NCBI GenBank assembly: GCA_027592325.1 | Contig: JAQCKO010000003.1 | Coordinates: 941-64,940, forward strand | Direction of reading: 5' to 3' | Length of the DNA stretch: 64,000 bases | Source: a bacterium | Lineage (GTDB): Bacteria; Patescibacteriota; Patescibacteriia; UBA9934 | Position numbers and translations under genes: made by a program | Shown: in pieces, positions 7,146 through 23,040 of the stretch | Layout: each line of letters starts with the position of its first letter | Numbering within the stretch: the stretch's first letter is position 1 | The notes under the pieces: model-generated | Databases searched by the model: none | What the model saw: only the letters and a program-made list of their open reading frames with translations | What the model was told of the DNA's origin: nothing

Positions 7146-7170
7146 CTCAGTTTTACTGAGGTTTTTTGTT
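7146..7170 (+). terminator. intrinsic terminator after tRNA-Asn
   Basis: Hairpin CTCAG-TTTTA-CTGAG followed by TTTTTTGTTT. Confidence 0.7.
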
Positions 7171-7215: not shown

Positions 7216-7217
7216 AT

Positions 7218-7928: not shown

Positions 7929-8668
7929 ATAAATTGATCCATCGCCATCAGGGACTCCAAGTTTGCCGTTCTGAATCCGTCCAGTATTCGGAGCCAATAA
8001 AAATTCACCGTCTTGTGCGGTGGATTTTTATTGGCTCTGGAGGGGGTAGGACAGTCCTGAGGACTGTCCGTGGGATGAGAACGGCCGGAGGCATATGTCG
8101 TCAGCAGACGACATGCCGAGGCCTGGTCCTGAGTGCGGTTTTCTGCAGAAAACCGACACGACGGCGAATCCCACCCCCGGAGCCAGGCTAGACGATCAGC
8201 ATCAAAGCTGATCGTTTTGCTTTTCTGAGGTATGTAATCAGATAGATTTAGTACCAAATTAAAAGGACTTCTTAATTCTAACAGTAATTTGCGATCCTTT
8301 AATTCTGGGTTCTGAACGAGGAAATTAATGAATTGGCGTTTTTCGTGTAATTCAGCACCTTCGAATATTTCTCGAGAACGACGAGCCACGGAAAGTACCG
8401 TGGCTACTGTCGTTTTGTAGTCATGATCTGCTTGAGTATGTTCTCCAAGCTCTATATTTAGACGCTGAAGACGATCTGTAAGCTCTTGCAGTTTTGTGTC
8501 GTAATCCTCCTTAGTAATCCGCACATTGAACTGGACACAACTTCGAAGGATTGGGATGGGTGTGTAGAAACGATTCTCAAACTGCTCGACGATGAGAGAA
8601 ACTGAACCATCAACAGCTTCAGCTCTGGCTACTTCACTGTTCTGAATGCGTCCAGTATCGGGAACCAA
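7925..8668 (-). CDS. hypothetical protein, probably a truncated or decaying gene
   Basis: Only ORF between R0 and R2. The N-terminal 150 codons (8230-8668) look protein-like. The C-terminal 95 codons read through the terminator, R0, the structured segment and R1 and are Pro/Ser/Arg-rich (likely non-coding read-through). A 25-codon homologous remnant (HEESQFINALVQTP) sits at 14954-15039. Confidence 0.3.
   Translation of the reverse strand: MVPDTGRIQNSEVARAEAVDGSVSLIVEQFENRFYTPIPILRSCVQFNVRITKEDYDTKLQELTDRLQRLNIELGEHTQADHDYKTTVATVLSVARRSREIFEGAELHEKRQFINFLVQNPELKDRKLLLELRSPFNLVLNLSDYIPQKSKTISFDADRLAWLRGWDSPSCRFSAENRTQDQASACRLLTTYASGRSHPTDSPQDCPTPSRANKNPPHKTVNFYWLRILDGFRTANLESLMAMDQFI
7968..7996 (+). 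repeat. junction repeat R1 (GTTCTGAATCCGTCCAGTATTCGGAGCCA), tRNA 3'-end-like
   Basis: 29-nt core ending in CGGAGCCA. Its last 6 nt begin a 47-nt near-perfect inverted repeat (7991-8037). Confidence 0.75.
7991..8037 (+). repeat. long hairpin GAGCCAATAAAAATTCACCG-TCTTGTG-CGGTGGATTTTTATTGGCTC (class B junction hairpin)
   Basis: 20-nt arms with one mismatch. The same hairpin core recurs at 9849-9885 after R3. Confidence 0.7.
8038..8164 (+). other. GC-rich highly structured segment with three perfect hairpins (candidate ncRNA or recombination-site arm)
   Basis: Hairpins GGACAGTCC-TGA-GGACTGTCC, ATGTCGTC-AGCA-GACGACAT with extended flanking pairing, and CGGTTTTCTG/CAGAAAACCG. GC content is well above the flanks, with an exact tRNA 3'-end copy at its 3' edge. 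Confidence 0.4.
8165..8185 (+). repeat. R0: exact 21-nt direct repeat of tRNA-Asn 3' end (CGAATCCCACCCCCGGAGCCA = 7116-7136)
   Basis: Perfect identity to the tRNA 3' end. Candidate att core delimiting a 1.07-kb unit. Confidence 0.85.
8192..8226 (+). terminator. intrinsic terminator (ACGATCAGC-ATCAAA-GCTGATCGT plus T-run)
   Basis: 9-bp perfect stem followed by TTTGCTTTTCT. A similar GACGATCAG hairpin follows R7 at 14846-14880. Confidence 0.65.
8639..8667 (+). repeat. junction repeat R2 (degenerate, ends GGGAACCA)
   Basis: GTTCTGAATGCGTCCAGTATCGGGAACCA followed by a degenerate class B hairpin (GCGGCGGATTTTT). Confidence 0.55.
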
Positions 8669-8724
8669 TAATCCTTCGCTAATTTCAGCGGCGGATTTTT
8701 GATACCCAAATAAAATTCAGAACC

Positions 8725-9819
8725 GTGGTAAAATCTTCGGGTGTGAAATTTGAACATAGAAGAACAGTCGAATATGTAGAATCGGCTAAAGTCAGTTTAG
8801 AAGATTTTGATGTTGGAGATACTCTAGAGGCATTGGCGGGTATTGCGTTAAAAGACGAAACTCAAAAGCGCGTATTGGAACTTCAAGAAAAAAAAAGGGG
8901 GGTAATGGAGTGGTTGAAAAATCAACGTACCAAAATTAACAATGGTGAAAAGATAGAATTGCATGAACAGCATTCGAAAATTTTCCATGTTGTTTATCAA
9001 GATGGCGCTTTCATCGGGAGTGACGGTGAACAAAGCTTTGATTTAACATTAGGCGAGTTGTTAACAGATGCATCTTGGGGCATTGATTATGATCTTGACA
9101 TGGATTCGGTGCCTTCAGATATAGCAAAGCAATATATTTTATCTAGAGCTAAAAGGATGCTGCGTGAATTGCTAAACAGGCAACTGGTTTTAATCGAATT
9201 GGATGTAAATAACGACGATCAGCAGAAGAAGTCCTTTTCAGCTGTTGGTGAAAGACAGAAGCAAGGAAGAGAGCTGATAGCTCAAGATCAGGGTTTTATT
9301 GCTGAAGAGATGATATTAAATTTAATAAAAAAACTAGTCATAGATCACGATTTGCCAGTTGAAATAGAGGAAGTAGATGTTTATGACGATGTGGTTAATA
9401 AAGTTGATTATGTTATCAGGAGAACTGATCGTAAAAGAGGGGTTGAAATTGATGTGATTGATGAAGAAAGTCCTGAACGGATAGGTGTTCAGTTCACACT
9501 CATGTTTCGAAAGGCCTCTATGGTTGGTAAGCGTAAAACAGTCTTACAGGCATTGAGAAGAGGTATGGTAGGTGAACTGCAAGATTTACAGGATATTGCT
9601 GTAGTAAATGTTCACCCAGCATATATAAAGCGATCAGTTAACACATGGAAAAAAACTAGAAAACCTGGCGGGCCGGACAATTGTTTAGAGGTAGCTGCTA
9701 AGGTAGATTTAGTTCAAAAAATGCTAAAAGATTTATTTTCAGAAAATGAAATAGATGAAATTGTAAGTGAAGTTTACGGCGTTGATAGAAATAAAACTAA
9801 AATTCGCAGAACCTATTAA
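8725..9819 (+). CDS. hypothetical protein
   Basis: 364-aa ORF filling cassette R2-R3, with no recognisable motifs. Confidence 0.5.
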   Translation: MVKSSGVKFEHRRTVEYVESAKVSLEDFDVGDTLEALAGIALKDETQKRVLELQEKKRGVMEWLKNQRTKINNGEKIELHEQHSKIFHVVYQDGAFIGSDGEQSFDLTLGELLTDASWGIDYDLDMDSVPSDIAKQYILSRAKRMLRELLNRQLVLIELDVNNDDQQKKSFSAVGERQKQGRELIAQDQGFIAEEMILNLIKKLVIDHDLPVEIEEVDVYDDVVNKVDYVIRRTDRKRGVEIDVIDEESPERIGVQFTLMFRKASMVGKRKTVLQALRRGMVGELQDLQDIAVVNVHPAYIKRSVNTWKKTRKPGGPDNCLEVAAKVDLVQKMLKDLFSENEIDEIVSEVYGVDRNKTKIRRTY

Positions 9820-9848
9820 GTTCTAACATCCTCCACGATGCGGAGCCA
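9820..9848 (+). repeat. junction repeat R3 (GTTCTAACATCCTCCACGATGCGGAGCCA)
   Basis: Followed by the class B hairpin AAAAATTCACCG-TCTTGTG-CGGTGGATTTTT (9849-9885). Confidence 0.75.
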
Positions 9849-9936
9849 ATAAAAATTCACCGTCTTGTGCGGTGGATTTTTGTATTTCCAATCACCCTCC
9901 CAGATTTCTTGCCGAAATGATACACTTGGTCACAAT

Positions 9937-10761
9937 ATGAACGTGAAAGAATTTTATAAACATTCATCAAAGGAAATCGTCGATCTATTTCGTGATTTTA
10001 TTGAAAAAGATTGTTTCAGCCAATATCCTGAATTAAAGGATAAGTTGAGCTTCGTGCTCACGGGATCCGTACCCTCGAATCACTATGATCAATATAGTGA
10101 TATTGATTGTAATTTGTTATTCGAGAACGAATCTGATCTGGCCATGATTAAGGAAGCTGTAAAAAAGTATAAGATGAGCTTACGGGAACAAAAACTTCCG
10201 ATTCAGCTTCACTCCCCAATGACGTTTAGCGAATTGGAAAACTCCTTGACCAATTGGAATCATGATTCGGCTTTACGTGAACACGCGGCAGCACTCGTCA
10301 TTTTTGACCCACACGATCGCTATAAAACAATTCAATCGCGGATCAAATGGTATCCAAAAGAAGTATTACAAGAAAAGATTCAATGGCTTTTTGCCGAATC
10401 TATTTTTGCGTTTGAAGATCGTCTTGTTGTGGCCGTGGAACGTGAAAATGATCTCTATGTACGCTCGTTGAGTTTACAGATAGTGAAACTGCTAGCCAAC
10501 GCACTCATCATGATAAATGACCGCTATCCTGTATTTGAAAAGCATATATATTTTAATCTCCGTGATCTCGGTGAAAATGAGTTTTGTGCTCAAATCGACT
10601 TGCTCCTGAGCATGACCGAGACAGATGAAATCCAAAGGTCTATTACTGATATCATCGATACCGTGGAACAACGCCTTATTAAAGCTGGTTTTATGGAAAA
10701 ACAGCCCAAAGAGCATTGGATACAGCTTCGTCCTAAGTTTCAGATTGAAGGATGCGCCTAG
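9937..10761 (+). CDS. polymerase-beta-superfamily nucleotidyltransferase domain protein
   Basis: LTGS-x10-DID matches the hG[GS]-x9-13-DhD minimal nucleotidyltransferase signature. Helical C-terminal domain. Start trimmed to ATG 9937. Confidence 0.6.
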   Translation: MNVKEFYKHSSKEIVDLFRDFIEKDCFSQYPELKDKLSFVLTGSVPSNHYDQYSDIDCNLLFENESDLAMIKEAVKKYKMSLREQKLPIQLHSPMTFSELENSLTNWNHDSALREHAAALVIFDPHDRYKTIQSRIKWYPKEVLQEKIQWLFAESIFAFEDRLVVAVERENDLYVRSLSLQIVKLLANALIMINDRYPVFEKHIYFNLRDLGENEFCAQIDLLLSMTETDEIQRSITDIIDTVEQRLIKAGFMEKQPKEHWIQLRPKFQIEGCA

Positions 10762-10841
10762 AAGGATTCAATGAATTTTGCAAATGTTCCATGCTGACTT
10801 AGACCTGGTATACTCATTCAAACCTCACAAAGAGTTTTTTT

Positions 10842-11861
10842 ATGGCAGAAAGACCAACGTTTAATCCTGAAATCAGAGAACTGCATGAAGGTGTAAAGAA
10901 GTTTGAAATCGTCGATGTAGAAGGTAATCGGTTAGGAGTTTGTGAATCTGTATTTGAAAAACACCCAACCAATGAACAGTACAAAGTTTTGCAGAGATGT
11001 GAACTTACTGCTGCAAACGGTGAAAAAATTGACTTGCTTCAGATGCCTGATGGTGAAAGAAGCAATGTCGAGGTTTTATTTGTCGACAATCCACGGATTG
11101 AAGAACAATATCTGATGCGTGTTGGTACCGTAGTTTTAGTTAATCGAGACATGACCTCCATTGATGACATTGCCGTATTATTGCATGAGATGGGACATGA
11201 CGAGCAGGCTCGCTCTTCTGATGGTTTCTCAGAAGTTTACAATGCGATGCACATTAACAACGACCTGCCATATGATGATTTTTCACGAGCGTTTCGTGAT
11301 TTAAGCGACAGTTTTCGAGTTCTTTATGCTTATATTGAAATGGTAGATCGTGATGTACCAATGCACGTTAAGCTTGATCAGGATTTAGAAGAAGAAATTA
11401 GAAATGCCGTAGCGGAATTTAAGCGTTTACATTTAGACGATGCAAAAGAATCTGATCGCATTAAAAAAGAAGTTGGTAGGGGTTATCTAGAGTGGTCCGA
11501 GGATGAGGAGCGTTATAACAAAGATCACCTAGCTGGGATTCGGGCCTTATCGTCCTCTACAGAGAGTGTTCTAAAAAAACATCCAAAGCTTCGTGGCATT
11601 TACACCGATATGGTTTTATGGCAGGAACGGGATGCTTCTGACCGAGCACGCGCTCGACTGAACGTTTTTGTCGAACAGGGAATGAATCTTGTTGACGCAA
11701 AGTTTCCTCTCACCGATCGAGAAATAGCTATGGCTGAAAATAACTTAACGCACAAATCGAGAAGGATGCAGGAGGCAACGAGGGCCTATCTTGAAGATCG
11801 AGACAAGACGATCGATGAGCGGCTTAAATTCTCGTATCAAACGTATGAATGTACGCATTGA
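10842..11861 (+). CDS. hypothetical protein with HExxH (zincin-like) motif, possible metallopeptidase
   Basis: LLHEMGHDEQ motif. Shares a cassette with the nucleotidyltransferase, with no junction repeat between them. Confidence 0.45.
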   Translation: MAERPTFNPEIRELHEGVKKFEIVDVEGNRLGVCESVFEKHPTNEQYKVLQRCELTAANGEKIDLLQMPDGERSNVEVLFVDNPRIEEQYLMRVGTVVLVNRDMTSIDDIAVLLHEMGHDEQARSSDGFSEVYNAMHINNDLPYDDFSRAFRDLSDSFRVLYAYIEMVDRDVPMHVKLDQDLEEEIRNAVAEFKRLHLDDAKESDRIKKEVGRGYLEWSEDEERYNKDHLAGIRALSSSTESVLKKHPKLRGIYTDMVLWQERDASDRARARLNVFVEQGMNLVDAKFPLTDREIAMAENNLTHKSRRMQEATRAYLEDRDKTIDERLKFSYQTYECTH

Positions 11862-11884
11862 TTGGTGAATTCTGTTCAACGGCA

Positions 11885-11913
11885 GTTCTAACATCCTCCA
11901 CGATGCGGAGCCA
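11885..11913 (+). repeat. junction repeat R4 (identical core to R3/R5)
   Basis: GTTCTAACATCCTCCACGATGCGGAGCCA followed by a class A terminator (ACCGG-TTTCA-CTGGT plus T-run). Confidence 0.75.
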
Positions 11914-12014
11914 ACAAAAACATACCGGTTTCACTGGTGTTTTTTTGTTTGTTTCAAAGCTATCTAGAGTGGGAATTGAACTTTCTTGATATAATGAATC
12001 TAGAAGATTGAATT

Positions 12015-13001
12015 ATGCGCAAATCATTCGATATTCCTCAACGCAGGTCAGATGTTGAGAAGCCCCCTGCACCAGAACTTAGGTTCTTCTTCTCTGCTCA
12101 CGGACAAATTCAAGACTATGAAGGTATCCAAGAAGCTTTACAGGATGCTGATGTTTTTGTTGTAGAAGCACACGGATGGAACGAAGATGATCTAAGGTAT
12201 CTTCAAGAAATTTCAGATGGAACCAAGGTTCCGAGGCACATAGAGGAAAAACGTGAACCACAAGATGTTATTGAATATGAGGAAGACTTGCTTTATAAAA
12301 CTGGTAAACGGATTGAAATCGTTGACGTACCCGAAGGCCACGAATTAGACAAAGAAGACGATGGAACAGCTGGGATATCTGAGGCTGCGCGCACTTTTAT
12401 TGCTCGTGGAGATCTAGAATCTGCACTTGCAGCGCTAGATACGGCAGTAAAGATGAATGCGGAGTACATTAGAAAAAAAGATGAGTATATTGAAGGTCAA
12501 TTGGATGCTCTTTTGAAGAAGCTTTCAATTGAGGATCCAAATGCGAAAGTGTTGGTTCAGATAGGATCGACACATACAGGCATTTCGCACGACTTAAGAA
12601 GAGAAGGAATAGCAAGTCGAGTACGTAATAGTGTAAAATTCGATTTTAAAGATGAGCTTGTTCGTTCTTATCGATTCAAAAAATCTCCTGAGAGGGATCT
12701 ATTAATAAAAGTCTTGATTGAAGAGGTGTTAAGAACAAGTTTTCAAGATCAACTCAGAAAGGTGCCATATATTCAGCGAGTCGATTTTTTCAGAAAGCAT
12801 TTAGCAAATATAACTGAGGAACAGATTCAAAATTTGGGCTATAAGACAGAGTCTAAGTTCTTTGATCGAGTGATTATGCGCTATGAGAATTACACACCAG
12901 AGCTTAAGAGACAGATTTTGACTGAATCATGGCAAGTTGTCTTCGGGGCGGCTATCGATGAAAGTATTGCAAAGTTAGTAAATCAGCAGCATGATCGATG
13001 A
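12015..13001 (+). CDS. hypothetical protein
   Basis: 328-aa ORF in cassette R4-R5, with no recognisable motifs. Confidence 0.5.
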   Translation: MRKSFDIPQRRSDVEKPPAPELRFFFSAHGQIQDYEGIQEALQDADVFVVEAHGWNEDDLRYLQEISDGTKVPRHIEEKREPQDVIEYEEDLLYKTGKRIEIVDVPEGHELDKEDDGTAGISEAARTFIARGDLESALAALDTAVKMNAEYIRKKDEYIEGQLDALLKKLSIEDPNAKVLVQIGSTHTGISHDLRREGIASRVRNSVKFDFKDELVRSYRFKKSPERDLLIKVLIEEVLRTSFQDQLRKVPYIQRVDFFRKHLANITEEQIQNLGYKTESKFFDRVIMRYENYTPELKRQILTESWQVVFGAAIDESIAKLVNQQHDR

Positions 13002-13006
13002 TCTTG

Positions 13007-13035
13007 GTTCTAACATCCTCCACGATGCGGAGCCA
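13007..13035 (+). repeat. junction repeat R5
   Basis: Identical 29-mer to R3/R4. Followed by a class A terminator (CATCGG-GTTTA-CTGGTG plus T8) and conserved block P2 (13069-13110). Confidence 0.8.
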
Positions 13036-13118
13036 GCAAAAGACATCGGGTTTACTGGTGTTTTTTTTGTTTGACCCAAATGGGACTTCGGAACAAGAAT
13101 TTGATAAACTGGTTTTAT

Positions 13119-14009
13119 ATGAAAAATGCATTCAACCTGCAAATCCCTGAGATGAAAGACATTCTGGCAGATCCTGAGATAGAGAAGTCCGTATCGGACA
13201 TGTTGGGAACCGTTTTGAGTTACCTCGGAATTCCAGACGACGCAACTGGGCGTGTAGTTGAGGAAACGTTCGACAAAACGAAAAAGGCGGTGTCAATCAC
13301 CGAATACGAGAAGAATGTACACGCTCTGCTTGATCGCGAGGGCGTAGTAGCCGCATTTCCACATAAGCTACTTGAGCGTACAAAGATCATGGTAGAAGAG
13401 CTTAGACCGTATCTTCTTGAGGGTAGCGTGCTAGATTTGGGATGTGGTGACGGCAAGACAGGGGAACTGCTAGCCGATACGCATGAAGTACAACTAGCGG
13501 ACGTGTTTGAACATCTGCACATCAAGGAAACGGGCTTGGACTTTACGTTTTTCAAGCAGGGCGAGCTTGTACCTATTGAAGATAACTCGTTCGACAATAC
13601 GTTAAGTATCTACGTATATCATCACAGCGACGATCCAATACAATCAATGCTCGAGGCGAAGCGGGTCACTCGGTCTGGTGGGAGAATCATTGTAATGGAA
13701 TCGGTTTATGGAGTGGACGAGTTGCTTCTCAGCGATGAACAGAAAGAGAAAGCTAAACCATTCTTACGCTTATCTGCGGAACAGCAGCGTTTATGTAACA
13801 TTTTTTTTGACCATTTCTGGAATCGGGTATTGATGTATAGCGATGACCCAAGCATGAAGATCAACGTTCCATTCAATTTTAATACTCCCGATGGTTGGAA
13901 GAAGATCTTTGAGGCTAATGGTCTTACACAGGAGAAAATGATTCACATGGGTATGGATCAACCAACCGTTCCTGAGTACCACACGATGCATATTTTGCGA
14001 GTAAACTAA
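13119..14009 (+). CDS. class I SAM-dependent methyltransferase
   Basis: VLDLGCGDGKTG motif I. Start trimmed to ATG 13119, after the conserved block. Confidence 0.7.
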   Translation: MKNAFNLQIPEMKDILADPEIEKSVSDMLGTVLSYLGIPDDATGRVVEETFDKTKKAVSITEYEKNVHALLDREGVVAAFPHKLLERTKIMVEELRPYLLEGSVLDLGCGDGKTGELLADTHEVQLADVFEHLHIKETGLDFTFFKQGELVPIEDNSFDNTLSIYVYHHSDDPIQSMLEAKRVTRSGGRIIVMESVYGVDELLLSDEQKEKAKPFLRLSAEQQRLCNIFFDHFWNRVLMYSDDPSMKINVPFNFNTPDGWKKIFEANGLTQEKMIHMGMDQPTVPEYHTMHILRVN

Positions 14010-14092
14010 TTTTTGAATGTGTTTACAAAAAGTTGAATGTATTCATGATAGAAACTGATCTATTGTAGGCCTTTAATGATGCCCAATGCACG

Positions 14093-14121
14093 GTTCTGAA
14101 CCCGTTCAGTATTCGGAGCCA
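14093..14121 (+). repeat. junction repeat R6 (GTTCTGAACCCGTTCAGTATTCGGAGCCA)
   Basis: Followed by the terminator TCAAAAAATCTCAGTTTTACTGAGGTTTTTTG, which is near-identical to the one after the tRNA, then block P3 (14152-14193). Confidence 0.8.
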
Positions 14122-14203
14122 TCAAAAAATCTCAGTTTTACTGAGGTTTTTTGTTTGATCCAAATGGGACTTCAGTACAAGAATTTGATAAACTAATATT
14201 TGT

Positions 14204-14776
14204 ATGAACGTTGCTGAACAAATTCAAAAGATGGTTACCGATGGGGTTTTGATCATTGCCATAGATGGTCATGGTGGTTCTGGCAAATCTTCCCTCGGAA
14301 GGATGTTGGGAGAAAAACTTCATGCCACAGTTTTCCATACCGATGATTTTGCTTCATGGGATAACCCAACCGAGTGGTACGAGGATATGATCGAGCAAGT
14401 CTTTATACCTATTGAAAATGGCGTAAAGACATTGAGTTATGAATTGTCAGTATGGGAAAAAGGTAAATCTCGTGGAAAAATTGAGAACCAGCCAGTAACG
14501 AACATTATCATCGTGGAAGGTGTCGGTGCGAGCAGAGCGGAGTTTCGCAAGTATCTCGACTTTTCCATCCTTGTCGATGTTCCTGAAAGCATTTGTATTG
14601 AAAGAGGGGTAAGTAGAGATCTTGCAGACATGCCCCACAAATCGAAAACGGAAATACGGAAACTTTGGCTTGATTGGATGGAAGAGGAGCGAAAGTATTT
14701 TTCAAAGCATCAACCCAAGGAAAATGCTGACGTTATTCTTGATGGAACAAAGTCGTTTGCTGAACAGATCGACTGA
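14204..14776 (+). CDS. P-loop nucleoside/nucleotide kinase-like protein (uridine-kinase/CPT-like fold)
   Basis: Walker A AIDGHGGSGKSS and Walker B-like IIIVEGVGA. 190 aa. Confidence 0.55.
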   Translation: MNVAEQIQKMVTDGVLIIAIDGHGGSGKSSLGRMLGEKLHATVFHTDDFASWDNPTEWYEDMIEQVFIPIENGVKTLSYELSVWEKGKSRGKIENQPVTNIIIVEGVGASRAEFRKYLDFSILVDVPESICIERGVSRDLADMPHKSKTEIRKLWLDWMEEERKYFSKHQPKENADVILDGTKSFAEQID

Positions 14777-14816
14777 CAAACTGAGCCATCATAGGCTTAA
14801 CTCCTGCCACTTGACC

Positions 14817-14845
14817 GTTCTGAACCCGTCCACGATGCGGAGCCA
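14817..14845 (+). repeat. junction repeat R7 (GTTCTGAACCCGTCCACGATGCGGAGCCA)
   Basis: Preceded by a 40-nt extension (14777-14816) that is 100% identical to 20425-20464. Followed by the terminator ACGATCAGTA-GAAA-TACTGGTCGT plus T-run. Confidence 0.8.
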
Positions 14846-15359
14846 AGAAGGACGATCAGTAGAAATACTGGTCGTTTTTCTTTGTGCTACTGAATAGTGT
14901 GCGAATTCTAGTACTGTATTCATTGGTTCTTTAGCTCAATAATGAATTCCCGTTCTTTCAATTAGGGAGTCTGAACAAGGGCATTGATGAACTGGCTTTC
15001 TTCATGCAAATCTATTGGCGAGCAGAAGGTAATATTGAGTCATGACATACTGAATACAAATGGATTGAGTTTGGCGATATAAAAAAATATCTTGGCACAA
15101 TCAAAACAATGAGATCGTGGCGATAAAATCAAAAATTCAAGACCTGACCCCTTTACGGTAGCATTGGCGAGTTGCTGCAACTCGGAGCACCTTCCACGGG
15201 TGGTCCTTACGTTTTAAAGGCGGAAATCGTGACAAAGTGAATGCACTTTTTTCTGGCAGGTCTTCTATGGTGGCTGTTTATGGGGGAGGTGCGTTTTGCA
15301 AGAGCTTGCCGCGTAAGGAGAAGAAGTGATGAGAGTTATTATTTGCTATACTTCTTCAT

Positions 15360-18293
15360 ATGGTCAGAAGATCAGAATATTATCGTATCAGTGAATTTGA
15401 GAGAGGTAGTGGTCATGAGCGTCCTCGTACTTCTATGGAGGGGGTTGAGGATTATGAGGCGCGAGAGCAGTCTTTTTTGTACGCTGCTCAAGATGAGAAG
15501 CGTGATTTGAAGGATTTGCTGAATGAGGTGCGTCCGTCGACGAGGTATTGGAGTGGCATGAAATCTCGAGTGCTAGAAAGTTTGCGGCGTATTGTTGGCG
15601 TTAAGGACTATGCGTCGATTTCTGATTCGCTTTCTAGTGAGGCTGCGCTAGACGCTTCTGGCGTTGAAGCGGAGGTTGCAGCCATGCGCGAAGATTTGGA
15701 AGTCCGAGAGCTTGAAGCTATTCTTGCGGAGTCACGTGGATCATCGCTTTTGGCGCGTCTCCGAGAGTTTTCATTTTCCTTTTTAGCAAAGCGTCAGCGA
15801 ATTTCGTTCGATGATAAGGGCGGCGAAGTGTCTAGCAAGCCAACCGCAGCGATCGAGAAGATTCAAAAAGTAGAGGAAAAGCGAGAAGAAATTTCCCTTA
15901 CCGATTGGCTTGAGGCGAAGATTCGTCGCGCTCGAGCGGAACGTATGTCCGATGGAGCTTCGGATGATGAGGTGCGGTTGGTTGATGATGAAATTTCGGA
16001 ATGGTTTCGAGCGAAGTTGGATCATTTTTTTGTGAGTGGTGGTGATCCTACGGATGAACAGGTATTGATTGATTGGCTTGAATCTGACGGTGAAGAAGTT
16101 GTTCCATCGGTTGAGACTACGGTTGTTCCGCGAGATAGCGATATATCTTCATCTGAAAAGCCGGGTGATGATGAAGAAGCGATTGAGAAAATGCTTGCGG
16201 AGATTCGCGGGCGTGAGGGGTTTTTGAATTCACTTTCTAACCATCGACGATATGTTCATGCTTTTCAATTAGCTTCGTTTTTAATGGCATCTGACGGAGG
16301 GAGTGCAGAAGCGTACAGGGATCTGGGGTCGGATATTGAAAAAGAAATGCAAGCAGGATTGGGAGAGAAGGTTGATTTAGAGGGGGTGCTTGAGGAGGAT
16401 CTTGATCATTTGGTGATGTACCGCTCGAATGAGCTTTTGAAAGCGTTTATTGAGGCGCCTGATCATCCTTTGGCTGCGAAGGGATTGCAAATGATGGCGG
16501 CGGAAAATCCATGCTATTTTGCGGGCGGATTATCTGCATTTTTTGAGCAGAGTTATTATAAAGATTTGCTTGAAGAAGTGATTTTTGCTGATCCTCGGTA
16601 TACGCTTGGCGTATTAGCTGAAGCAAAAGGGGATCAGAAGAACAGTGCTCTTGCCGATGAGGTTACCACTTTACTAAAGGATTCAACTCAGCTATCGGCG
16701 GAAACAATGCTAGTGCTGTCTTCTGAGGATATGCCAGCTTTTGAACGTGATAGGCTAGCTGATATTTTCCCTTTTTTGGTACGTGACAATGTGGGCGGTG
16801 AATTGTTTGACCAGATTCTGGGGGATGATCATGCGTATGTGGATGGACTCGTGTATGTGGCTTCGAATGATTTTGGGATTATGTCTGAGCGGGCCGACGA
16901 TACATTGAATGTAATTATGGACGAGCGCGTGGCTAGAATGAATAACTTGCAGGAGTCAGGGGACCCATATGCATCGATTAGGGGGGCGAGTGTTGATGAG
17001 CTGTATGCAACCATGGCCTATGGTAACTATGCAGCTCCGTGGATGGTCGATACGATGTTTAAAGAGCTTTCAGCGAAGATGAGGGAGGATGGCCTGGGGT
17101 CGAAGCAATTGGTTGATCGGCTGGGCGGACTTCAATTTCAGCAGTTTGCGGAAAATCTTTCAGAGGTAGGGCTATTTGATGAATTTTTGGTATTGGCCGT
17201 CGCTGAGCATCGCGGGAAGGCGCTCATTGATCGTTTTATTTCTGGGATTACTTCTGATAATGCTCGTGAATCGCTCGGACATATTACTCAGATGATTCAA
17301 CTCACCTCGCATACGGGTGTTCAATCGTATTTGAAGGAAGCTATCGAGCGCGAGTACGTGACAGCTCGTGATTCTGGCGACAAAGATCAACAGCGTGCTT
17401 ATGGAGTGCTTTCTTCTTTATTTGGCGAAGAAGCGACATGGCTTGATTCTAATGAATATATGGTTTCACCGCAGGAGAAGCTGGCCATTTCAGAGCTCTT
17501 CGATGAGAGTGGTCGCAGTGTTTCAGAGAATCGTTTTTATCAAGATATAGATAGTGATGGGCATTGGTCGTTTCTTAGCTGGGTGCAGCAACAGAAGCAG
17601 CTTGGGTTTGATGTGGAAGATCATGGAACCTTCATTCGTATGGTTAGGAAGCAAGAGAATCGTGTGGTGATTTTGTACGGAAATAAGCCTCAAGCTTCTC
17701 CACACGGTGCTACGAAACTCAAGGCCATGGATTATGCTCAATTTCAGCAGTTTAAGAAGAGTGCTGGACTAGGTGATGGGATCGCGGACGTACCGAGAGA
17801 TCGGTGGGATGACGGTATGAATGGAGTTGCTGATATGCGTGAACATATGCAAGCGAATGGCTTAGATGGGCAGATTTTGGTGCATCGTGGTCATTCGTAT
17901 TGGAATCAGTATACACTTGAAGATGTTTATGATTCGACCAGGCTTGTTATTGATGGGTCCTGCGGGGGAGCGGGGACTGTTCAGAATGCAATTCGTGCGA
18001 ATCCTGATGTGCAGATGCTTTATACTCGAGGGATTGGTTCAACGGGTATTAATGATACATTGGTTCGAAATATTAATGCGTTATTGATTGCAGGTAAAGA
18101 TATCGTTTGGAGTGATTTGCGAAGTGAAACTGGCGGAGAGTTCGGCGCCCTCTATAGCGATGCAGAGACTAGAGAAAAGGCTGAGGGATATTATGATAAG
18201 TATGTTTTTCCAGATCAGAAACAAGGTCTTTCTACGCGTGTTGTGCAACGATTTTTAGCCGGCGATACAGATCCCATTATAACAGCAGGTTAA
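15360..18293 (+). CDS. large acidic hypothetical protein (977 aa) with C-terminal His...Cys pattern whose order matches clan-CD (caspase-like) peptidases
   Basis: Long Asp/Glu-rich helical N-terminal region. C-terminal QILVHRGHSYW then RLVIDGSCGGAG, each after a hydrophobic strand, with His before Cys. Start uncertain (15360 or a downstream Met). Confidence 0.5.
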   Translation: MVRRSEYYRISEFERGSGHERPRTSMEGVEDYEAREQSFLYAAQDEKRDLKDLLNEVRPSTRYWSGMKSRVLESLRRIVGVKDYASISDSLSSEAALDASGVEAEVAAMREDLEVRELEAILAESRGSSLLARLREFSFSFLAKRQRISFDDKGGEVSSKPTAAIEKIQKVEEKREEISLTDWLEAKIRRARAERMSDGASDDEVRLVDDEISEWFRAKLDHFFVSGGDPTDEQVLIDWLESDGEEVVPSVETTVVPRDSDISSSEKPGDDEEAIEKMLAEIRGREGFLNSLSNHRRYVHAFQLASFLMASDGGSAEAYRDLGSDIEKEMQAGLGEKVDLEGVLEEDLDHLVMYRSNELLKAFIEAPDHPLAAKGLQMMAAENPCYFAGGLSAFFEQSYYKDLLEEVIFADPRYTLGVLAEAKGDQKNSALADEVTTLLKDSTQLSAETMLVLSSEDMPAFERDRLADIFPFLVRDNVGGELFDQILGDDHAYVDGLVYVASNDFGIMSERADDTLNVIMDERVARMNNLQESGDPYASIRGASVDELYATMAYGNYAAPWMVDTMFKELSAKMREDGLGSKQLVDRLGGLQFQQFAENLSEVGLFDEFLVLAVAEHRGKALIDRFISGITSDNARESLGHITQMIQLTSHTGVQSYLKEAIEREYVTARDSGDKDQQRAYGVLSSLFGEEATWLDSNEYMVSPQEKLAISELFDESGRSVSENRFYQDIDSDGHWSFLSWVQQQKQLGFDVEDHGTFIRMVRKQENRVVILYGNKPQASPHGATKLKAMDYAQFQQFKKSAGLGDGIADVPRDRWDDGMNGVADMREHMQANGLDGQILVHRGHSYWNQYTLEDVYDSTRLVIDGSCGGAGTVQNAIRANPDVQMLYTRGIGSTGINDTLVRNINALLIAGKDIVWSDLRSETGGEFGALYSDAETREKAEGYYDKYVFPDQKQGLSTRVVQRFLAGDTDPIITAG

Positions 18294-18294
18294 T

Positions 18295-18549
18295 ATGAAT
18301 AAACGATTATTTGCACTTATTCATTCATCTGATTTAGCGAAGGATGAACAGTATCGATTTCTTGGTATGCTTCGAGCTTCTTCTGAGTTAGATCAGAAAA
18401 AACTGGCGGTACTATTTTTGGAAGACCCTGCTTCTTTGCGAGCTGTTTTCGAAAATTTTGACGCGAAGCGTTCGGCGAAGGAGGACGGGAGTGTGGAGCT
18501 TTTTGAGCAGGCTATTGATAAAGAAAAGGAGTTTTTGCAAAATCTCTAA
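18295..18549 (+). CDS. small hypothetical protein (84 aa), translationally coupled to the upstream large protein
   Basis: Starts 1 nt after the stop of the 977-aa ORF. Confidence 0.45.
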   Translation: MNKRLFALIHSSDLAKDEQYRFLGMLRASSELDQKKLAVLFLEDPASLRAVFENFDAKRSAKEDGSVELFEQAIDKEKEFLQNL

Positions 18550-18618
18550 AAACGGCTCCATTAACAAGACCCCATTCGCCGTTGCGTTTGGGGTCTTTCG
18601 CCGTGAACTGAGCGTGTC

Positions 18619-19368
18619 TCAATTCGTTTGGCAGTCGTAGGCGCCGTCAGCGTTGACAGTGCAGTTCATTGGGATGATGAGGACCTCGTCGCCGACCTCT
18701 GCGACGTCGAAGAGGTAGTTCATCCAGGCACCATCCACGCCGACGCAGCCTTGGGTGTATTGCCCGGGCGTCCAGGAGTGGATGAGGATGTCTCCCCCCA
18801 TCGCGGTTTGTTGCGACGGTACCCTGCCGCTCTCGATGTGTTTCAGCATGCGTTTCATGGTGGGCTCGTCGATGACACCCTGCGTAAATGCACGCTTGAT
18901 GTCGCGACGGCGGGGGTAGTCGATGCGGAGGCCCTGCTCGAAACTCGTCTTGTACGGGTAGGCGCGATCGGAGTCGCGCGTCGCCTTCACGTGGACGACG
19001 TACTTGCCCTCGGGCGTTGACGACCAGTCGCGGCGGGTCTTTGGCCCTTCAGGCGTCTTCCCCATGTTCACGGGGATGCAGACAGTTTCGCCGCTCTGTA
19101 CCACCAGATAGCCTTCGTAATAAAGGGCGATGTGGTGGGTGTCCTTGAAGACCACCAGGGTGCGCTTCCCGGTTGTTCGACCGTCTGGTCGGTACTCGAT
19201 GGGAAGCTTGCCAAGGTCGGCGGGGCAGGGCGACTCCTTCTCGTAGGAGTAAGGGTTGTCGCTCCACGGGTGGGGAGCGGTCGCGGATGTGGTTATGATG
19301 TCGGCTGGTTTCTGAGGAGCGCAAAATGTCAGGTTTGAGGTCAGGGCGAGAATGAATGCTCGGAGCAT
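18619..19368 (-). CDS. secreted L,D-transpeptidase (YkuD-like) domain protein, compositionally foreign
   Basis: Signal peptide, then IHSWTPGQYTQGCVGV matching the LD-transpeptidase His/Cys catalytic motif. Markedly higher GC than all neighbours, and a high-GC gene typically carries long shadow ORFs on other frames (18628-19020, 19049-19324, 19132-19338). Confidence 0.6.
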   Translation of the reverse strand: MLRAFILALTSNLTFCAPQKPADIITTSATAPHPWSDNPYSYEKESPCPADLGKLPIEYRPDGRTTGKRTLVVFKDTHHIALYYEGYLVVQSGETVCIPVNMGKTPEGPKTRRDWSSTPEGKYVVHVKATRDSDRAYPYKTSFEQGLRIDYPRRRDIKRAFTQGVIDEPTMKRMLKHIESGRVPSQQTAMGGDILIHSWTPGQYTQGCVGVDGAWMNYLFDVAEVGDEVLIIPMNCTVNADGAYDCQTN

Positions 19369-19930
19369 GGCATCTCCAGCATGAAGTTAAAGAATTGACT
19401 GACCACTAACCTTAGCTTAAATGTGTTCATTTTGTCAAGGGGGTAATTGTTTTTACTCCTATCAAGCTTGTCAACAAGATTTTCCTGTTTCTCGCTTATT
19501 TTGATATAATGTGCAGCCGATCTCGCTCAGACGCTTTGCGCTCCTGATACGGAATCTGCCTATTGTGCAACTACGGATACGGCGGTCTATTATGTGACGC
19601 CAGATTGCCAGCGGTATTTTTTGAACGAGGATATTTTCATTAGTTATTATTCTTCTTGGGATGAAGTGAAGGAGAATGAGGAACTTTCCTTTATGCCTTC
19701 GGGGCCAAATTATCCCCTTTAATTTGGAACGCCTGTAAAGACGGTGAACGATCCCAAGGTCTGCATATTACTCCTTCCACTTTTGCCACTACCAGTATTT
19801 TTTTGTATTTGTTTCTTGCTTTGAAGAAAAATTACAAAATCAACTGGGTATTACTGTGGCTATTGTAGATATGGATGAGTATTGGCTAGACCGAGAATCC
19901 GATGCCTTCAAAGATGGCCGCGATCAGGAA

Positions 19931-19958
19931 CAGCTCGAATCCATGTGATGCGGAGCCA
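19931..19958 (+). repeat. junction repeat R8 (short variant ...GCTCGAATCCATGTGATGCGGAGCCA)
   Basis: Ends CGGAGCCA. Followed by the class C hairpin GGGACTCGAAC-TATCCAAT-GTTCGAG plus T-run (19961-19998). Confidence 0.65.
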
Positions 19959-20024
19959 ATGGGACTCGAACTATCCAATGTTCGAGTTTTGTTTTATGCT
20001 AGAGAAAAATTCGGTTCTAATTAT

Positions 20025-20432
20025 ATGAATCATATAGCAACAGGGATATTGATAGACAAGGATGGAAAACTCTTGGCCTATCTACGAGATGACAAACCGA
20101 GCATTCCGTTTCCTAATCATTGGGATCTTTTTGGTGGATACGTAGAAGATGGGGAAACGAATGAAGAAGCTCTTGTGCGTGAAGTGCAGGAAGAATTGGG
20201 ATGTAACCTCAAAGATTACAGCTTCTACAAAGATTATGAGTGTTTGAAGGGCGATGACCATGTAAATGTGAAGCATGTTTTTGTTGCGCACATTGATGCA
20301 AAAGCGGATGACCTGACTTTATATGAGGGTCAAGAGCTGCGTGGTATTCCACTTGAAGAAATACATGAGTACAAATGGGCAAACATTTTGGGAGTGATTT
20401 TGGATGACTTCGTAAAAGATCAAGCAAACTGA
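20025..20432 (+). CDS. NUDIX hydrolase
   Basis: Nudix box GGYVEDGETNEEALVREVQEELG. Start trimmed to ATG 20025, downstream of the junction hairpin. Confidence 0.75.
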   Translation: MNHIATGILIDKDGKLLAYLRDDKPSIPFPNHWDLFGGYVEDGETNEEALVREVQEELGCNLKDYSFYKDYECLKGDDHVNVKHVFVAHIDAKADDLTLYEGQELRGIPLEEIHEYKWANILGVILDDFVKDQAN

Positions 20433-20464
20433 GCCATCATAGGCTTAACTCCTGCCACTTGACC

Positions 20465-20493
20465 GTTCTGAACCCGTTCAGTATTCGAAGACA
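20465..20493 (+). repeat. junction repeat R9 (degenerate end CGAAGACA)
   Basis: GTTCTGAACCCGTTCAGTATTCGAAGACA, preceded by a 40-nt extension identical to 14777-14816. Followed by the hairpin CCTCAGCA-GAAA-TGCTGGGG plus T-run and a GGGGTTCGAACTG motif. Confidence 0.7.
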
Positions 20494-20598
20494 ACATCGC
20501 CTCAGCAGAAATGCTGGGGGTTTGTTATTGTTTTTGGACTTCCCGAAATGGGGTTCGAACTGATATAGTCCGAGAAGTAATTTTTTAACTCTCTAGTT

Positions 20599-20784
20599 AT
20601 GAAGACAATGAAATGTGATATGTGTGAAGCGACCGCAGAAGGCGAAACATTTGAGGCGTGGATGCAGGCTCTCATGCCTCATTACATGCAAGTTCATGCA
20701 GACGTAATGAATGATCCTAAGAATGGGAAAGAGGAGCAGATGAAATGGATGGTTGAAAATAAGGCAAGGTTTGAGGCTGCCTAA
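20599..20784 (+). CDS. small hypothetical protein (61 aa, CxxC near N-terminus)
   Basis: MKCDMCEATAEG. Sole ORF in cassette R9-R10. Confidence 0.4.
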   Translation: MKTMKCDMCEATAEGETFEAWMQALMPHYMQVHADVMNDPKNGKEEQMKWMVENKARFEAA

Positions 20785-20890
20785 AATCACGCGGCAACTA
20801 TCGATTGTTATGCCGAAAAATAATCGCTAAACCAAATCTGACACTGTGAAGGTCGGGGTGCTAGCATGCCCTTTGTACTTCTGAATAGCA

Positions 20891-20918
20891 GTTTTACATC
20901 CTCTACGACGCGGAGCCA
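20891..20918 (+). repeat. junction repeat R10 (GTTTTACATCCTCTACGACGCGGAGCCA)
   Basis: Ends CGGAGCCA. Followed by the same CTCAGCAGAAATGCTGGG hairpin and CCCGAAATGGGGTTCGAACTG motif as R9. Confidence 0.7.
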
Positions 20919-21104
20919 ACAAAATCTCAGCAGAAATGCTGGGATTTTGTTATTGTTTTTGGATTACCCGAAATGGGGTTCGAACTGGTAAAGTATATCT
21001 GTATGGATTCGATCAAATTTCACCCGAACGATGGCATGCATGTCTTGAAGACGATTGGCTAACCATACATGAAACAGAAATTAAATGATCACCGAAGAAA
21101 TACC

Positions 21105-21491
21105 ATGAAACTCAAAATCCAAACAGCTAATGCCCCCTTGCCAAAAAGTAGCCCTCACTCCCAGGCCATCGTCGCGAATGGTTTTGTTTTCACTCAAGGT
21201 TCCATTTGCTTAACAACTGAAGGTAAACTTCTTGAGGGAACCATCGAAGAACAGATTCATCAAATCATGAAAAATCTGAAAGCTATTTTGGATGAAGCGC
21301 ATGTGTCATTTGAAGATGTAGTGAAGTCCACCATTTATCTTACAGACATGTCGTTATACGGAAAGGTAAATGAGATTTATGGGAGCTACTTCTCAGATCC
21401 ATACCCAGCACGGGAGACCGTATGCGTTTCCGAGCTTCCTCTTGGCGCGAAGGTTGAAATCAGCATGATCGCCGCCTTAACTATCCAATAA
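21105..21491 (+). CDS. ridA: RidA/YjgF-family reactive-intermediate deaminase
   Basis: PARETVCVSELPLGAKVEI C-terminal motif, about 128 aa. Start trimmed to MKLKIQT. Confidence 0.75.
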   Translation: MKLKIQTANAPLPKSSPHSQAIVANGFVFTQGSICLTTEGKLLEGTIEEQIHQIMKNLKAILDEAHVSFEDVVKSTIYLTDMSLYGKVNEIYGSYFSDPYPARETVCVSELPLGAKVEISMIAALTIQ

Positions 21492-21575
21492 CCTAATGAT
21501 GCATTTGCGTGATGAAGTGACAGCTGGTGTGCATTTTCTCCATACTCACCTTCACCTCAGCATAAACACTCCCCA

Positions 21576-21604
21576 GTTCGGTAAAAAGGTAATCTAGGGA
21601 GCCA
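21576..21604 (+). repeat. junction repeat R11 (degenerate: GTTCGGTAAAAAGGTAATCTAGGGAGCCA)
   Basis: 29 nt retaining GTTCGG...GGAGCCA. Followed by a class A terminator (CATATG-TTTTA-CAGGTG plus T7) and block P4 (21636-21677). Confidence 0.55.
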
Positions 21605-21684
21605 GCAAAAGACATATGTTTTACAGGTGTTTTTTTGTTTGACCCAAGTGGGACGTCAGAACCAGAATCTGATAAACTGTCATT

Positions 21685-22335
21685 ATGAAACGGCTAAAAG
21701 ACACATTTCTTGAGACAATACAGTCACAGATCAACTTTACTGAAAAAACGTTATTTGAAGTTGGATGTGGAGATGGTTCTCGTACGGTGCAAATGGCAAA
21801 ATACTGCAAGCAAATTTTTGCCATAGAACCTGACGCTGAAAAGGTGCAGTTAGCTATAAAGTCGAATGCACAAAAAAACATTACCTACTCCGTTGGATAT
21901 GCCGAGCAGCTACCAGCGGGAGATCATACATTTGATATCGTGATCTTCACACTCTCTCTGCATCACGTAGCAATCAAGAAAATGAATGTAGCTTTAGACG
22001 AAGCGATTCGTGTAGTAAAAAAGAATGGATACATAATTGTTTTCGAACCAGCCTTCAATGGATCATTTTTTGAAGCCGAGATCGCTTTTGATGCATGTGA
22101 TGGTGATGAGCGGATGCAAAAGGCATCCGCTTACGCACACATACTCTCACATCCGAATCTTAAAGAGGTGGCGGAACTGAATGACGAAACAGTTTTTCAG
22201 TTTGATTCGTACGAAGATTTCGTTTCGTCCATGAATCCATCAATTCGAACAGCTGATGAAATCAATACCTTTCTCGAAAAGCATAATTACGTCTTAAAGG
22301 CAGATCGTCGCATCAATATTTTTCAACCTTATTAG
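21685..22335 (+). CDS. class I SAM-dependent methyltransferase
   Basis: FEVGCGDGSRT motif I. 216 aa. Confidence 0.7.
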   Translation: MKRLKDTFLETIQSQINFTEKTLFEVGCGDGSRTVQMAKYCKQIFAIEPDAEKVQLAIKSNAQKNITYSVGYAEQLPAGDHTFDIVIFTLSLHHVAIKKMNVALDEAIRVVKKNGYIIVFEPAFNGSFFEAEIAFDACDGDERMQKASAYAHILSHPNLKEVAELNDETVFQFDSYEDFVSSMNPSIRTADEINTFLEKHNYVLKADRRINIFQPY

Positions 22336-22360
22336 ATTTTCTAAAACCGCCAAATTCATC

Positions 22361-22389
22361 GTTCTGAATCCGTCCAGTATGCGGAGCCA
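22361..22389 (+). repeat. junction repeat R12 (GTTCTGAATCCGTCCAGTATGCGGAGCCA)
   Basis: Followed by a class A terminator (CATCTG-TTTTA-CAGGTG plus T-run) and block P5 (22420-22447). Confidence 0.8.
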
Positions 22390-22485
22390 GCAAAAGACAT
22401 CTGTTTTACAGGTGATTTTTGTTTGACCCAAGTGGGACGTCAGAACCATTGACCTTTATTTTTTAATCCTAGATACTTTAACAGT

Positions 22486-22983
22486 ATGGATGACGTATAC
22501 ATTGGTAAAGGAAAGCTTGCAGGAAAGGGTGTGTATGCAGCTCGTGATTTCGCAGTCGGCGAAGTCGTGAAATATTACAATCTCAAATCTTTTTCACAAT
22601 TAGATTTTGATAACCTCCCCGATGAAGAGAAGATGTTTGTACATTCCTTTTGGGGCGAGATGTTTTTATTTCCAGAACCATCTCGATATACAAATCACTC
22701 AGCAAATCCAAATACCCGATCGGATCTTAAGAAAATGTGTGATATTGCCATAAGACCCATCAAAAAAGGAGAAATGATAACTACTAATGCGACTACCGAG
22801 GTGCGCAAAGAACTACAAACATTTTTGGAGGCTCACGAGGGTATTGAGATTAAAGATTTCAAATGGCTCAAGGGTGGTTACCGAAATGCTACTGTTTCCT
22901 ACTTGGTATCAAACGGGTCTAAGAAAGTGCTCAATCTAAAGCGAATCGATGGAAATTGGCGTATTTTGAAAGAGAGTGTTTAA
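22486..22983 (+). CDS. SET-domain protein (putative protein-lysine methyltransferase)
   Basis: N-terminal GKGVYAARDFAVGEVV, then RYTNHSANPN (compare SET NHSCxPN) and GEMITTNAT (compare GEELTxxY). 165 aa. Confidence 0.5.
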   Translation: MDDVYIGKGKLAGKGVYAARDFAVGEVVKYYNLKSFSQLDFDNLPDEEKMFVHSFWGEMFLFPEPSRYTNHSANPNTRSDLKKMCDIAIRPIKKGEMITTNATTEVRKELQTFLEAHEGIEIKDFKWLKGGYRNATVSYLVSNGSKKVLNLKRIDGNWRILKESV

Positions 22984-23011
22984 GTTTATATGTACTTCGC
23001 TCCATTTCACC

Positions 23012-23040
23012 GTTCGGAACCCGTCCACCAATCGGAGCCA
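23012..23040 (+). repeat. junction repeat R13 (GTTCGGAACCCGTCCACCAATCGGAGCCA), last copy
   Basis: Followed by the class C hairpin GGGACTCGAAC-TGTTAAAG-GTTCGAG plus T-run (23041-23078). No further copies downstream. Confidence 0.75.

Follow-up and report, generated by a model that had tools for sequence, protein, structure and literature searches.

Within a 64,000-nucleotide stretch of a patescibacterial genome (contig JAQCKO010000003.1, hereafter the window), a single minus-strand gene for a predicted exported YkuD-fold enzyme is far richer in GC than everything around it. The original prediction, made from the letters of this DNA, took the gene to be a recent acquisition from a high-GC donor. 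Our analysis points in another direction. The gene sits in a conserved three-gene module, the trees of the enzyme and its large partner are congruent, the GC offset recurs in every module locus compared, and no donor was found. We therefore consider it probable that the high GC content is an old feature of this slot, conserved across the module, and not the signature of a recent import. The module in the window consists of the following elements.

15360–18293, plus strand: partner gene, coding for a 977-residue protein without a signal peptide (NCBI MDA0207967.1, "hypothetical protein O3B64_00970 [bacterium]")
18295–18549, plus strand: gene for a small helical 84-residue protein, starting 1 nt past the partner stop codon
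18566–18597, no strand assigned: hairpin between the two convergent transcription units (fold of 18550–18618, −26.2 kcal/mol, z = −3.05)
18619–19368, minus strand: gene for an exported YkuD-fold (L,D-transpeptidase/carboxypeptidase-like) enzyme of 249 residues, the compositional outlier (open reading frame, Pfam, AF2/Foldseek and GC content)

A conserved three-gene module

In the window, profiles of the partner and of the small protein match beside the enzyme gene, and they do so again in at least 13 other loci from uncultured bacteria (L007, L008, L009, L010, L011, L012, L013, L016/L028, L019/L020, L021/L022, L023, L024, L025 and L027). The small-protein profile matches in all of these loci with E-values between 1e-9 and 1e-39. 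One additional locus, L018, shows only the small gene before the contig ends. The module comes in two layouts, convergent and co-directional. In the window, the partner and the small gene converge on the enzyme gene across the hairpin, which is not followed by a T-run and hence is not a canonical intrinsic terminator. The partner is absent only beside enzyme homologues from hosts of 62–71% GC (L005, L006 and L017). Partner homologues were collected from the neighborhoods of enzyme loci and by exact look-up; word-indexed searches returned only the partner itself.

In the genomes of the relatives, the modules lie among core genes such as those for DnaE, ThrRS, RNase HII, S16, TrmD and PolA, and att-like repeats are absent from their module loci. 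The cassette boundaries around the enzyme gene, which the original prediction had proposed to compare with those of the donor, are consequently not shared with any relative.

Enzyme and partner appear to have diverged together. Their pairwise identities correlate with r = 0.91, and neighbor-joining trees of the two proteins (203 and 553 columns) have all their well-supported clades in common. The bootstrap values for enzyme and partner are 75.5 and 92 for the group of the window and L016, 96 and 100 for L011, L012 and L023, and 100 and 100 for L008, L009 and L013. As judged from these sequence comparisons, the enzyme gene is not an independent piece of cargo but one of three co-inherited genes.

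Several module loci show features of their own. The sister module in L016 adjoins a gene for a 1922-residue Rhs/YD-repeat toxin (SpvB-TcdB-RHS-PT-TG-ribonuclease; L016 3458–9226) with a Barstar-like gene, and beyond the partner there is a second GC-rich (60.8%) lipoprotein-like reading frame (L016 13922–14680). In L011 (9939–10670) and L012 (120–779), an open alternative frame of 219–243 codons runs on the same strand across almost the whole enzyme gene. These enzyme genes have 52% GC, and the frame is unusually long for a shadow reading frame; it is absent from the window gene. The module proteins of L011 and L012 are about 81–89% identical, and their contigs are labeled "Candidatus Uhrbacteria" and "uncultured Gammaproteobacteria", respectively, so that at least one of the two labels is unreliable. 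In L019, a block of about 60–66% GC extends over positions 600–2550 of a contig whose host has about 50%; the upstream reading frame in it matches PF01553 with E = 1.6e-4, below the cut-off.

Composition of the enzyme gene in the window

The open reading frame (ORF) is intact, with 249 codons for amino acids, 750 nt and an ATG start. Its GC content is 60.3% (57.2, 46.0 and 77.6% at first, second and third codon positions; GC1, GC2 and GC3), and that of the whole window is 44.2%. When the window is cut into non-overlapping segments of 750 nt, no other segment exceeds 49.9% GC, and the enzyme gene stands at z = +6.4. Compared with the 49 other ORFs of the window (GC about 44%, GC3 about 41%), the gene is outlying in GC (z = +6.6) and in GC3 (z = +7.0). 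Its codon adaptation index (CAI), calculated with the codon usage of the window itself as reference, is 0.585, versus 0.726 ± 0.024 for the window ORFs (z = −5.8). Maximum-likelihood two-state segmentation of the region 17000–21000 returned a GC-rich block at 18568–19322, with 61.1% GC inside and 43.3% outside. Since these limits approximate those of the ORF, the GC-rich segment is essentially the ORF. The flanking sequences have 46.3% (977-residue gene), 40.0% (84-residue gene), 41.2% (561-nt spacer) and 40.8% GC (NUDIX gene), which leaves the enzyme gene with an excess of 14–20 points. Seven shadow ORFs of at least 40 residues overlap it. The compositional part of the original prediction is thus borne out, including a GC content well above every neighbor and the shadow frames in several registers. 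Unremarkable GC and CAI values had been named as the outcome that would speak against it; on the scale of the 64-kb window, rather than genome-wide, both values are outlying.

The excess consists mainly of C-ending codons. Third positions of the enzyme gene are composed of A.12, C.51, G.26 and T.10, where the comparison values are 0.19–0.21 for C and 0.19–0.22 for G. The fraction of C in two-fold NNY codons is 0.86, versus 0.34–0.37 in other genes (z = 6.5). Two general causes can be eliminated. Exported proteins are not generally GC-rich in this genome, as the gene for HtrA (5282–6466) has a typical GC3 of 40.5%. Strand-specific mutation bias is excluded by the normal third positions of the 10 other minus-strand genes.

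The GC offset across module loci

The enzyme gene has a higher GC content than the partner gene in 12 of 12 module loci compared, by 3–14 points. The differences in the first ten are +13.9, +11.5, +12.2, +7.6, +11.4, +12.8, +8.7, +10.8, +3.1 and +7.3 (Wilcoxon p = 0.001); two further loci gave +12.1 and +11.7. Partner GC tracks host GC. Ranked by GC3 among the ORFs of its contig, the enzyme gene comes first in 11 of 15 cases and second in two more, and a GC3 anomaly is missing only in hosts of at least 61% GC. The shift toward NNC codons seen in the window recurs in all 10 module loci tested. In L016, from a host of 48% GC, the enzyme gene has 60.2% GC, with a protein only 36% identical to the window enzyme.

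In the clade of L023, L011 and L012, enzyme and partner genes descend jointly. Synonymous divergence (dS) in this clade is 0.9–1.0 or saturated, and the enzyme genes still show GC3 offsets of +28, +19 and +16. According to the amelioration model of Lawrence and Ochman from 1997, GC3 should decay faster than the other positions, and an imported gene should have lost its offset once synonymous sites are saturated. Like imported genes in that model, the enzyme gene has GC content and codon usage that are atypical for its host. Unlike them, it keeps the offset in vertically co-inherited clades, and its GC3 is far more "foreign" than its GC1. The GC1 of the window gene (57.2) is host-like; homologues native to hosts of 69–71% GC have values of 66–71. 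Since the offset persists past synonymous saturation, neutral amelioration under this model should long have erased an import signal.

Donor search and strain comparison

The original prediction called for a homology search to identify the donor lineage. A word-indexed search of 5.8 billion clusters, an exhaustive HMMER search of 1.84 billion representatives and a scan of GTDB genomes each returned no non-self homologue of the enzyme above 46% identity; the GTDB scan used the pattern DxxSTPEGWY, which does not cover the window variant ..EGKY. Together these searches addressed about 15 billion proteins, with next-best matches at 34–46% identity. No donor emerged, the best non-self match being 44–46% identical.

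Only one near-identical enzyme was found. It is encoded on a metagenome scaffold from a different sample (L001) that is 99.5% identical to window positions 11016–19378 and joins the partner operon to the enzyme gene in the same way. The scaffold stops at window position 19378, which is 10 nt upstream of the enzyme start codon and coincides with the compositional boundary; strain variation or an assembly break beyond this point may account for its end.

The two sequences, which represent the same organism in two samples, differ at 20 real positions: nine in the enzyme gene, eight in the partner, one in the small gene and two in four other cassettes. The enzyme gene thus holds nine of 20 single-nucleotide polymorphisms (SNPs) in 9% of the aligned length (binomial p = 2.5e-5), with a density of 12 per kb as compared to 2.7 in the partner and 0–1.7 in the other cassettes. 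Six of the nine are non-synonymous and eight exchange GC for AT or the reverse. Higher mutability of GC-rich DNA was estimated roughly to raise the rate by about 14%, which is insufficient for a 4–8-fold SNP excess. Such a pattern is what a gene outside mutational equilibrium would show if it evolved fast or recombined. Biased gene conversion could produce it, and so, equally well, could imported DNA that is still decaying. The partner SNPs are partly clustered at 16017–16093.

Origin of the GC excess

How can a single gene of a co-inherited module differ so much from its neighbors? Since the offset is module-wide and persistent, the GC excess is best read as a long-lived trait of the gene slot. 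The module would then probably have arrived in its cassette in the window as a unit that was already internally heterogeneous. Candidate forces behind this heterogeneity would be recurrent replacement, biased gene conversion if the gene is prone to recombination, and selection, either for NNC codons or for high expression. A more specific version is that this is an undescribed module in which the enzyme gene alone has been held about 10 GC points (up to +37 GC3) above hosts of 41–58% GC for longer than synonymous saturation; we put this forward tentatively, as a possibility with somewhat more against it than for it. Such a situation would require a gene-specific force that drives GC: the gene might be a recombination hot spot subject to biased gene conversion, its C-ending codons might be under selection, or there might be gene flow from co-diversifying high-GC partners.

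A number of observations weigh against a long-lived trait of the slot. The window enzyme is about equidistant (35–40%) from all module enzymes, and its identities to those of L016 (36%) and L019 (40%) fall below the 46–47% predicted from partner identity. The grouping of the window with L016 could reflect long-branch attraction, and the trees were made by neighbor joining only, on the column numbers given above. The nearest homologue by identity (L004, 45.5%) comes from a 69% GC host, on a contig too short to show a partner, and the next one is the non-module enzyme of L017 (44%) from a 62% GC host. The third positions of the window gene resemble those of the L008 enzyme gene, which is native to a 62% GC genome (A.12, C.44, G.30, T.14). 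The offset at four-fold degenerate sites is small in L011 and L012 (+5 to +6). In L019, the GC-rich block also covers a neighboring acyltransferase-like gene and looks like imported DNA. Finally, the host data for the window are limited to its 64 kb.

Much of this evidence would be expected if illegitimate recombination with an unsampled donor of about 60–65% GC had recently brought in the enzyme gene, or exchanged just its slot in a module already present, and the gene had not yet ameliorated. The GC3 and CAI values, the match between the edges of the GC block and the ORF, an enzyme that is more divergent from L016 and L019 than the partner predicts, nearest relatives in L004 and L017, third positions equal to those of the L008 enzyme gene with its native host of 62% GC, and an L019 block wider than the enzyme gene all agree with such an event. 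So does the predominance of GC–AT exchanges among the differences from L001, which is expected of a gene out of compositional equilibrium. We nevertheless regard recent import as unlikely, albeit worth keeping in view. No candidate donor exceeds 46% identity, and neither att repeats nor mobility genes belong to this gene by itself. No module locus compared lacks the offset, not even those of vertically inherited clades in which dS is past saturation, and the enzyme and partner trees are congruent. Independent replacement in at least 13 lineages, always beside the same partner, would be unparsimonious.

Translational selection offers another explanation, namely that the enzyme is a very abundant lipoprotein whose codons, like those of highly expressed genes, are optimized toward NNC. 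The excess indeed lies mostly in C3 (+30 points) and little in G3 (+5), the preference for C in NNY codons is strong in the window, and the NNC shift is found in each of the ten module loci tested. Moreover, the gene for ribosomal protein S16 in L019 has an NNC fraction of 0.79, versus 0.50 in the partner. On the other hand, GC1 and GC2 are also above the host, G-ending NNR codons are raised too in most loci, and the gene for S20 in L021 shows no such shift. An offset of +37 GC3 points is also far beyond the usual expression-linked bias. We consider this explanation improbable. We attach almost no weight to the possibility of an assembly chimera, in which a high-GC fragment was misjoined, or of a chance ORF in a shadow frame. 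The GC boundaries are sharp, and L001, the independent scaffold, reaches only 10 nt upstream of the start codon. Yet this scaffold, although from a different sample, reproduces the junction to the partner operon at 99.5% identity, at least 13 unrelated assemblies have the same order of genes, and the protein covers the whole Pfam profile and was modeled confidently with a YkuD fold.

Outliers in GC content and codon usage are routinely taken as recent transfers. Here, the strongest outlier in 64 kb occupies a slot that is outlying in nearly all genomes with the module, among them lineages to which it was passed on vertically. If a long-lived trait of this slot is the correct explanation, strongly "foreign" composition can be a stable property and is not by itself a mark of recent transfer. 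Confirmation would provide a clean natural case of gene-specific GC maintenance and a caution for the compositional detection of horizontal gene transfer.

The enzyme and its predicted chemistry

The enzyme gene itself is an ordinary member of its family in a new genetic setting; of greater interest are the persistent GC excess and the uncharacterized partner. Two elements of the gene are pertinent to its function.

18745–18780, minus strand: catalytic motif H197 ... T205-Q-G207-C208 (invariant in the alignment, inside the YkuD match)
19321–19368, minus strand: signal peptide, codons 1–16, ending in the lipobox-like L-T-F-C16 (read from the sequence and the alignment of homologues)

The protein matches Pfam family YkuD (PF03734) with E = 3.5e-10 and 41.1 bits, above the gathering cut-off of 23.4. 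Residues 69–231 cover positions 2–146 of 146 and hence the full profile. In an alignment of 20 subfamily sequences (the window enzyme and 19 other members), H197, T205, G207 and C208 are invariant, as are C48, C97 and the motif K-x-x-x-D-x-x-S-T-P-x-G-x-Y. The histidine of the canonical S-H-G-C motif is replaced by Gln, Ala or Trp in this subfamily. The N-terminus reads MLRAFILALTSNLTF-C16, and most of the 20 sequences have a lipobox (...GC/AC/TC) whose cysteine lines up with C16, which suggests lipoprotein-type export; Phe at position −1 of the putative lipobox is atypical. These features agree with the signal peptide and the YkuD motif recognized in the original prediction. They characterize the ORF as a functional gene for a predicted membrane-anchored, exported cysteine enzyme of the YkuD fold.

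An AF2 model of the enzyme (pLDDT 85.3, pTM 0.78) was compared with the PDB by Foldseek, which gave a probability of 1.0 to LdtMt3, LdtMt1, Ldtfm and Bd1075. Among 72 matches at E ≤ 1e-3, all 50 listed belong to the YkuD family, although with TM-scores of only 0.3–0.4. A profile search against the PDB identified 7o21 (Bd1075, E = 2.4e-6), 6xj6 (Pgp2, 1.1e-4) and 4xzz (Csd6, 4e-3) as the best solved relatives. Four of the five matches in this search represent these three proteins (three of four distinct proteins), and the remaining one is the unnamed YkuD protein 8ikr. By sequence profile, the closest characterized relatives are thus the LD-carboxypeptidases Bd1075 of Bdellovibrio, Pgp2 of Campylobacter and Csd6 of Helicobacter.

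Bd1075 has been reported to trim peptidoglycan tetrapeptides as a carboxypeptidase (PMC8938487), and the YkuD family also includes hydrolases such as DpaA (PMC10653827). On the basis of family membership, we surmise that Cys208 together with His197 would attack the bond between an L-center and D-Ala in peptidoglycan tetrapeptide stems. Transfer of the resulting acyl group to water would amount to LD-carboxypeptidase trimming as in Bd1075, Pgp2 and Csd6, and transfer to an amine would produce a 3-3 cross-link. On sequence grounds, trimming and cross-linking are both candidate reactions of this enzyme. With LD-carboxypeptidases as its closest relatives, β-lactam-insensitive cross-linking is a putative role only, and annotation of the gene as a β-lactam-bypass determinant would first need biochemistry.

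The window enzyme and the three LD-carboxypeptidases have in common the motif K-x-x-R-D-x-x-(S/K)-T-P-E-G-x-Y, a G-C catalytic loop and export, which is predicted for the window enzyme. They differ in several respects. The C-terminal NTF2-like domain of Csd6, Pgp2 and Bd1075 is absent from the window enzyme, which ends 16 residues past the catalytic match, and the match to 7o21 spans only residues 35–187 of 324. The window enzyme has a lipoprotein-type signal and a two-helix insert (residues 154–179), and its identity to the three proteins is below 20%. None of them is known from a module with an α-solenoid/H-x-G-H...C protein.

Cross-linking L,D-transpeptidases (LdtMt1/2/3/5, Ldtfm and YkuD of B. 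subtilis) share with the window enzyme its fold (Foldseek probability 1.0, E about 1e-6), its Pfam family and the use of a His/Cys catalytic pair. In contrast to their canonical S-H-G-C-h-N/R motif, the window enzyme has T-Q-G-C-V-G. Its catalytic His and Cys are 11 residues apart, a shorter spacing than the roughly 16–21 residues in YkuD, LdtMt2 and Ldtfm. Also unlike these transpeptidases, the window enzyme contains no peptidoglycan-binding (LysM or Ig-like) domain. A search of the literature on L,D-transpeptidases in Patescibacteria returned nothing relevant.

The partner and the small protein

The 977-residue partner has no sequence match in Pfam, NCBIfam or the PDB. An AF2 model of a 525-residue segment, calculated with nine homologues (pLDDT 85.4, pTM 0.83), consists of an α-solenoid followed by a C-terminal α/β domain with an invariant H-x-G-H ... 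C motif. The invariant residues are H390, G392, H393 and C416 in the numbering of the modeled segment. Foldseek found nothing significant for this model in the PDB or in BFVD, a collection of predicted viral structures. Conserved synteny and co-divergence suggest a functional link between partner and enzyme. This would be a new association of a predicted peptidoglycan stem-peptide enzyme with two uncharacterized proteins, and an entry point to a new system associated with the cell wall of uncultured bacteria.

The cassette and its tRNA-Asn array

The module resides in an array of cassettes (7062–23040) that is anchored by a tRNA gene. The relevant features are as follows.

7062–7136, plus strand: tRNA-Asn(GTT), anchor of the array (ARAGORN and Rfam, 73.9 bits)
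14809–14845, plus strand: left boundary of the module cassette, a repeat resembling the tRNA 3′ end (nhmmer with the repeat model, E = 1e-9)
19930–19958, plus strand: right boundary, a degenerate repeat of the same kind, direct-repeat family D8 (nhmmer, E = 0.0027)
19446–19474, minus strand: promoter-like site of the enzyme gene, TTGACA-17-AACAAT, 10 of 12 consensus positions (consensus scan, a pattern match only)
19501–19510, plus strand: TTGATATAAT, an extended −10 element (TGnTATAAT) that points right, away from the enzyme gene (read from the sequence)

Downstream of the tRNA gene, 12 degenerate copies of its 3′ end extend to position 23040, with an exact copy at 8166–8185. A hairpin and a conserved TTGACCCAAGTGGGA..TCAGAAC box come after each repeat. 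The repeats bound 13 mostly single-gene cassettes of 0.4–2 kb and one of 5.1 kb, with cargo that includes a creatininase, a nucleotidyltransferase, methyltransferases, a kinase, NUDIX, RidA and SET proteins. The original prediction had spoken of cassette boundaries around the enzyme gene. Between 14845 and 19930, nhmmer found no att-like repeat better than E = 4.8, so that the gene is not its own cassette. Instead, it fills the largest cassette of the array (14846–19929, 5.1 kb) together with the genes of the 977- and 84-residue proteins. As had been noted, it is a minus-strand exception, being the only intact minus-strand gene of the array.

The promoter-like decamer TTGATATAAT that had been pointed out beside the enzyme gene lies on the plus strand and faces away; the site reading from 19474 to 19446 on the minus strand is the better candidate. 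The decamer occurs twice, the other copy being located at 11986, 29 nt upstream of a cassette gene that starts at 12015. By this precedent, a cassette-leader promoter may also be present at 19501, its gene having been lost or having decayed. Only a 42-residue ORF (19594–19722) follows this copy.

The array is not an integron. Its repeats resemble a tRNA 3′ end (GTTCTGAAyCC...CGGAGCCA) and not GTTRRRY, and no IntI was recognized among the scanned ORFs of the window; integron attC sites have an R″/L″...L′/R′ arrangement with a GTTRRRY core that is missing from the array repeats. A closer likeness exists to the tycheposon islands of Prochlorococcus, in which partial tRNAs flank elements and their remnants and stacking occurs via successive integrations (bioRxiv 10.1101/2020.12.28.424599). 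Both have a full tRNA gene and partial copies of its 3′ end that bound cargo. In contrast to tycheposons, the window cassettes are tiny, with one gene in 0.4–2 kb except for the module cassette, and each repeat carries the hairpin and box described above. Also in contrast, no integrase or replication gene was recognized among the scanned ORFs of the 64-kb window, beyond which such a gene could lie.

Near the start of the array, a GC-rich element of 158 nt (8031–8188, plus strand) folds to −86.8 kcal/mol (z = −6.4) and matches no Rfam family. Its 5′ end pairs with the tRNA-Asn 3′-end copy at 8166–8185, which forms an acceptor-like closing stem around three hairpins.

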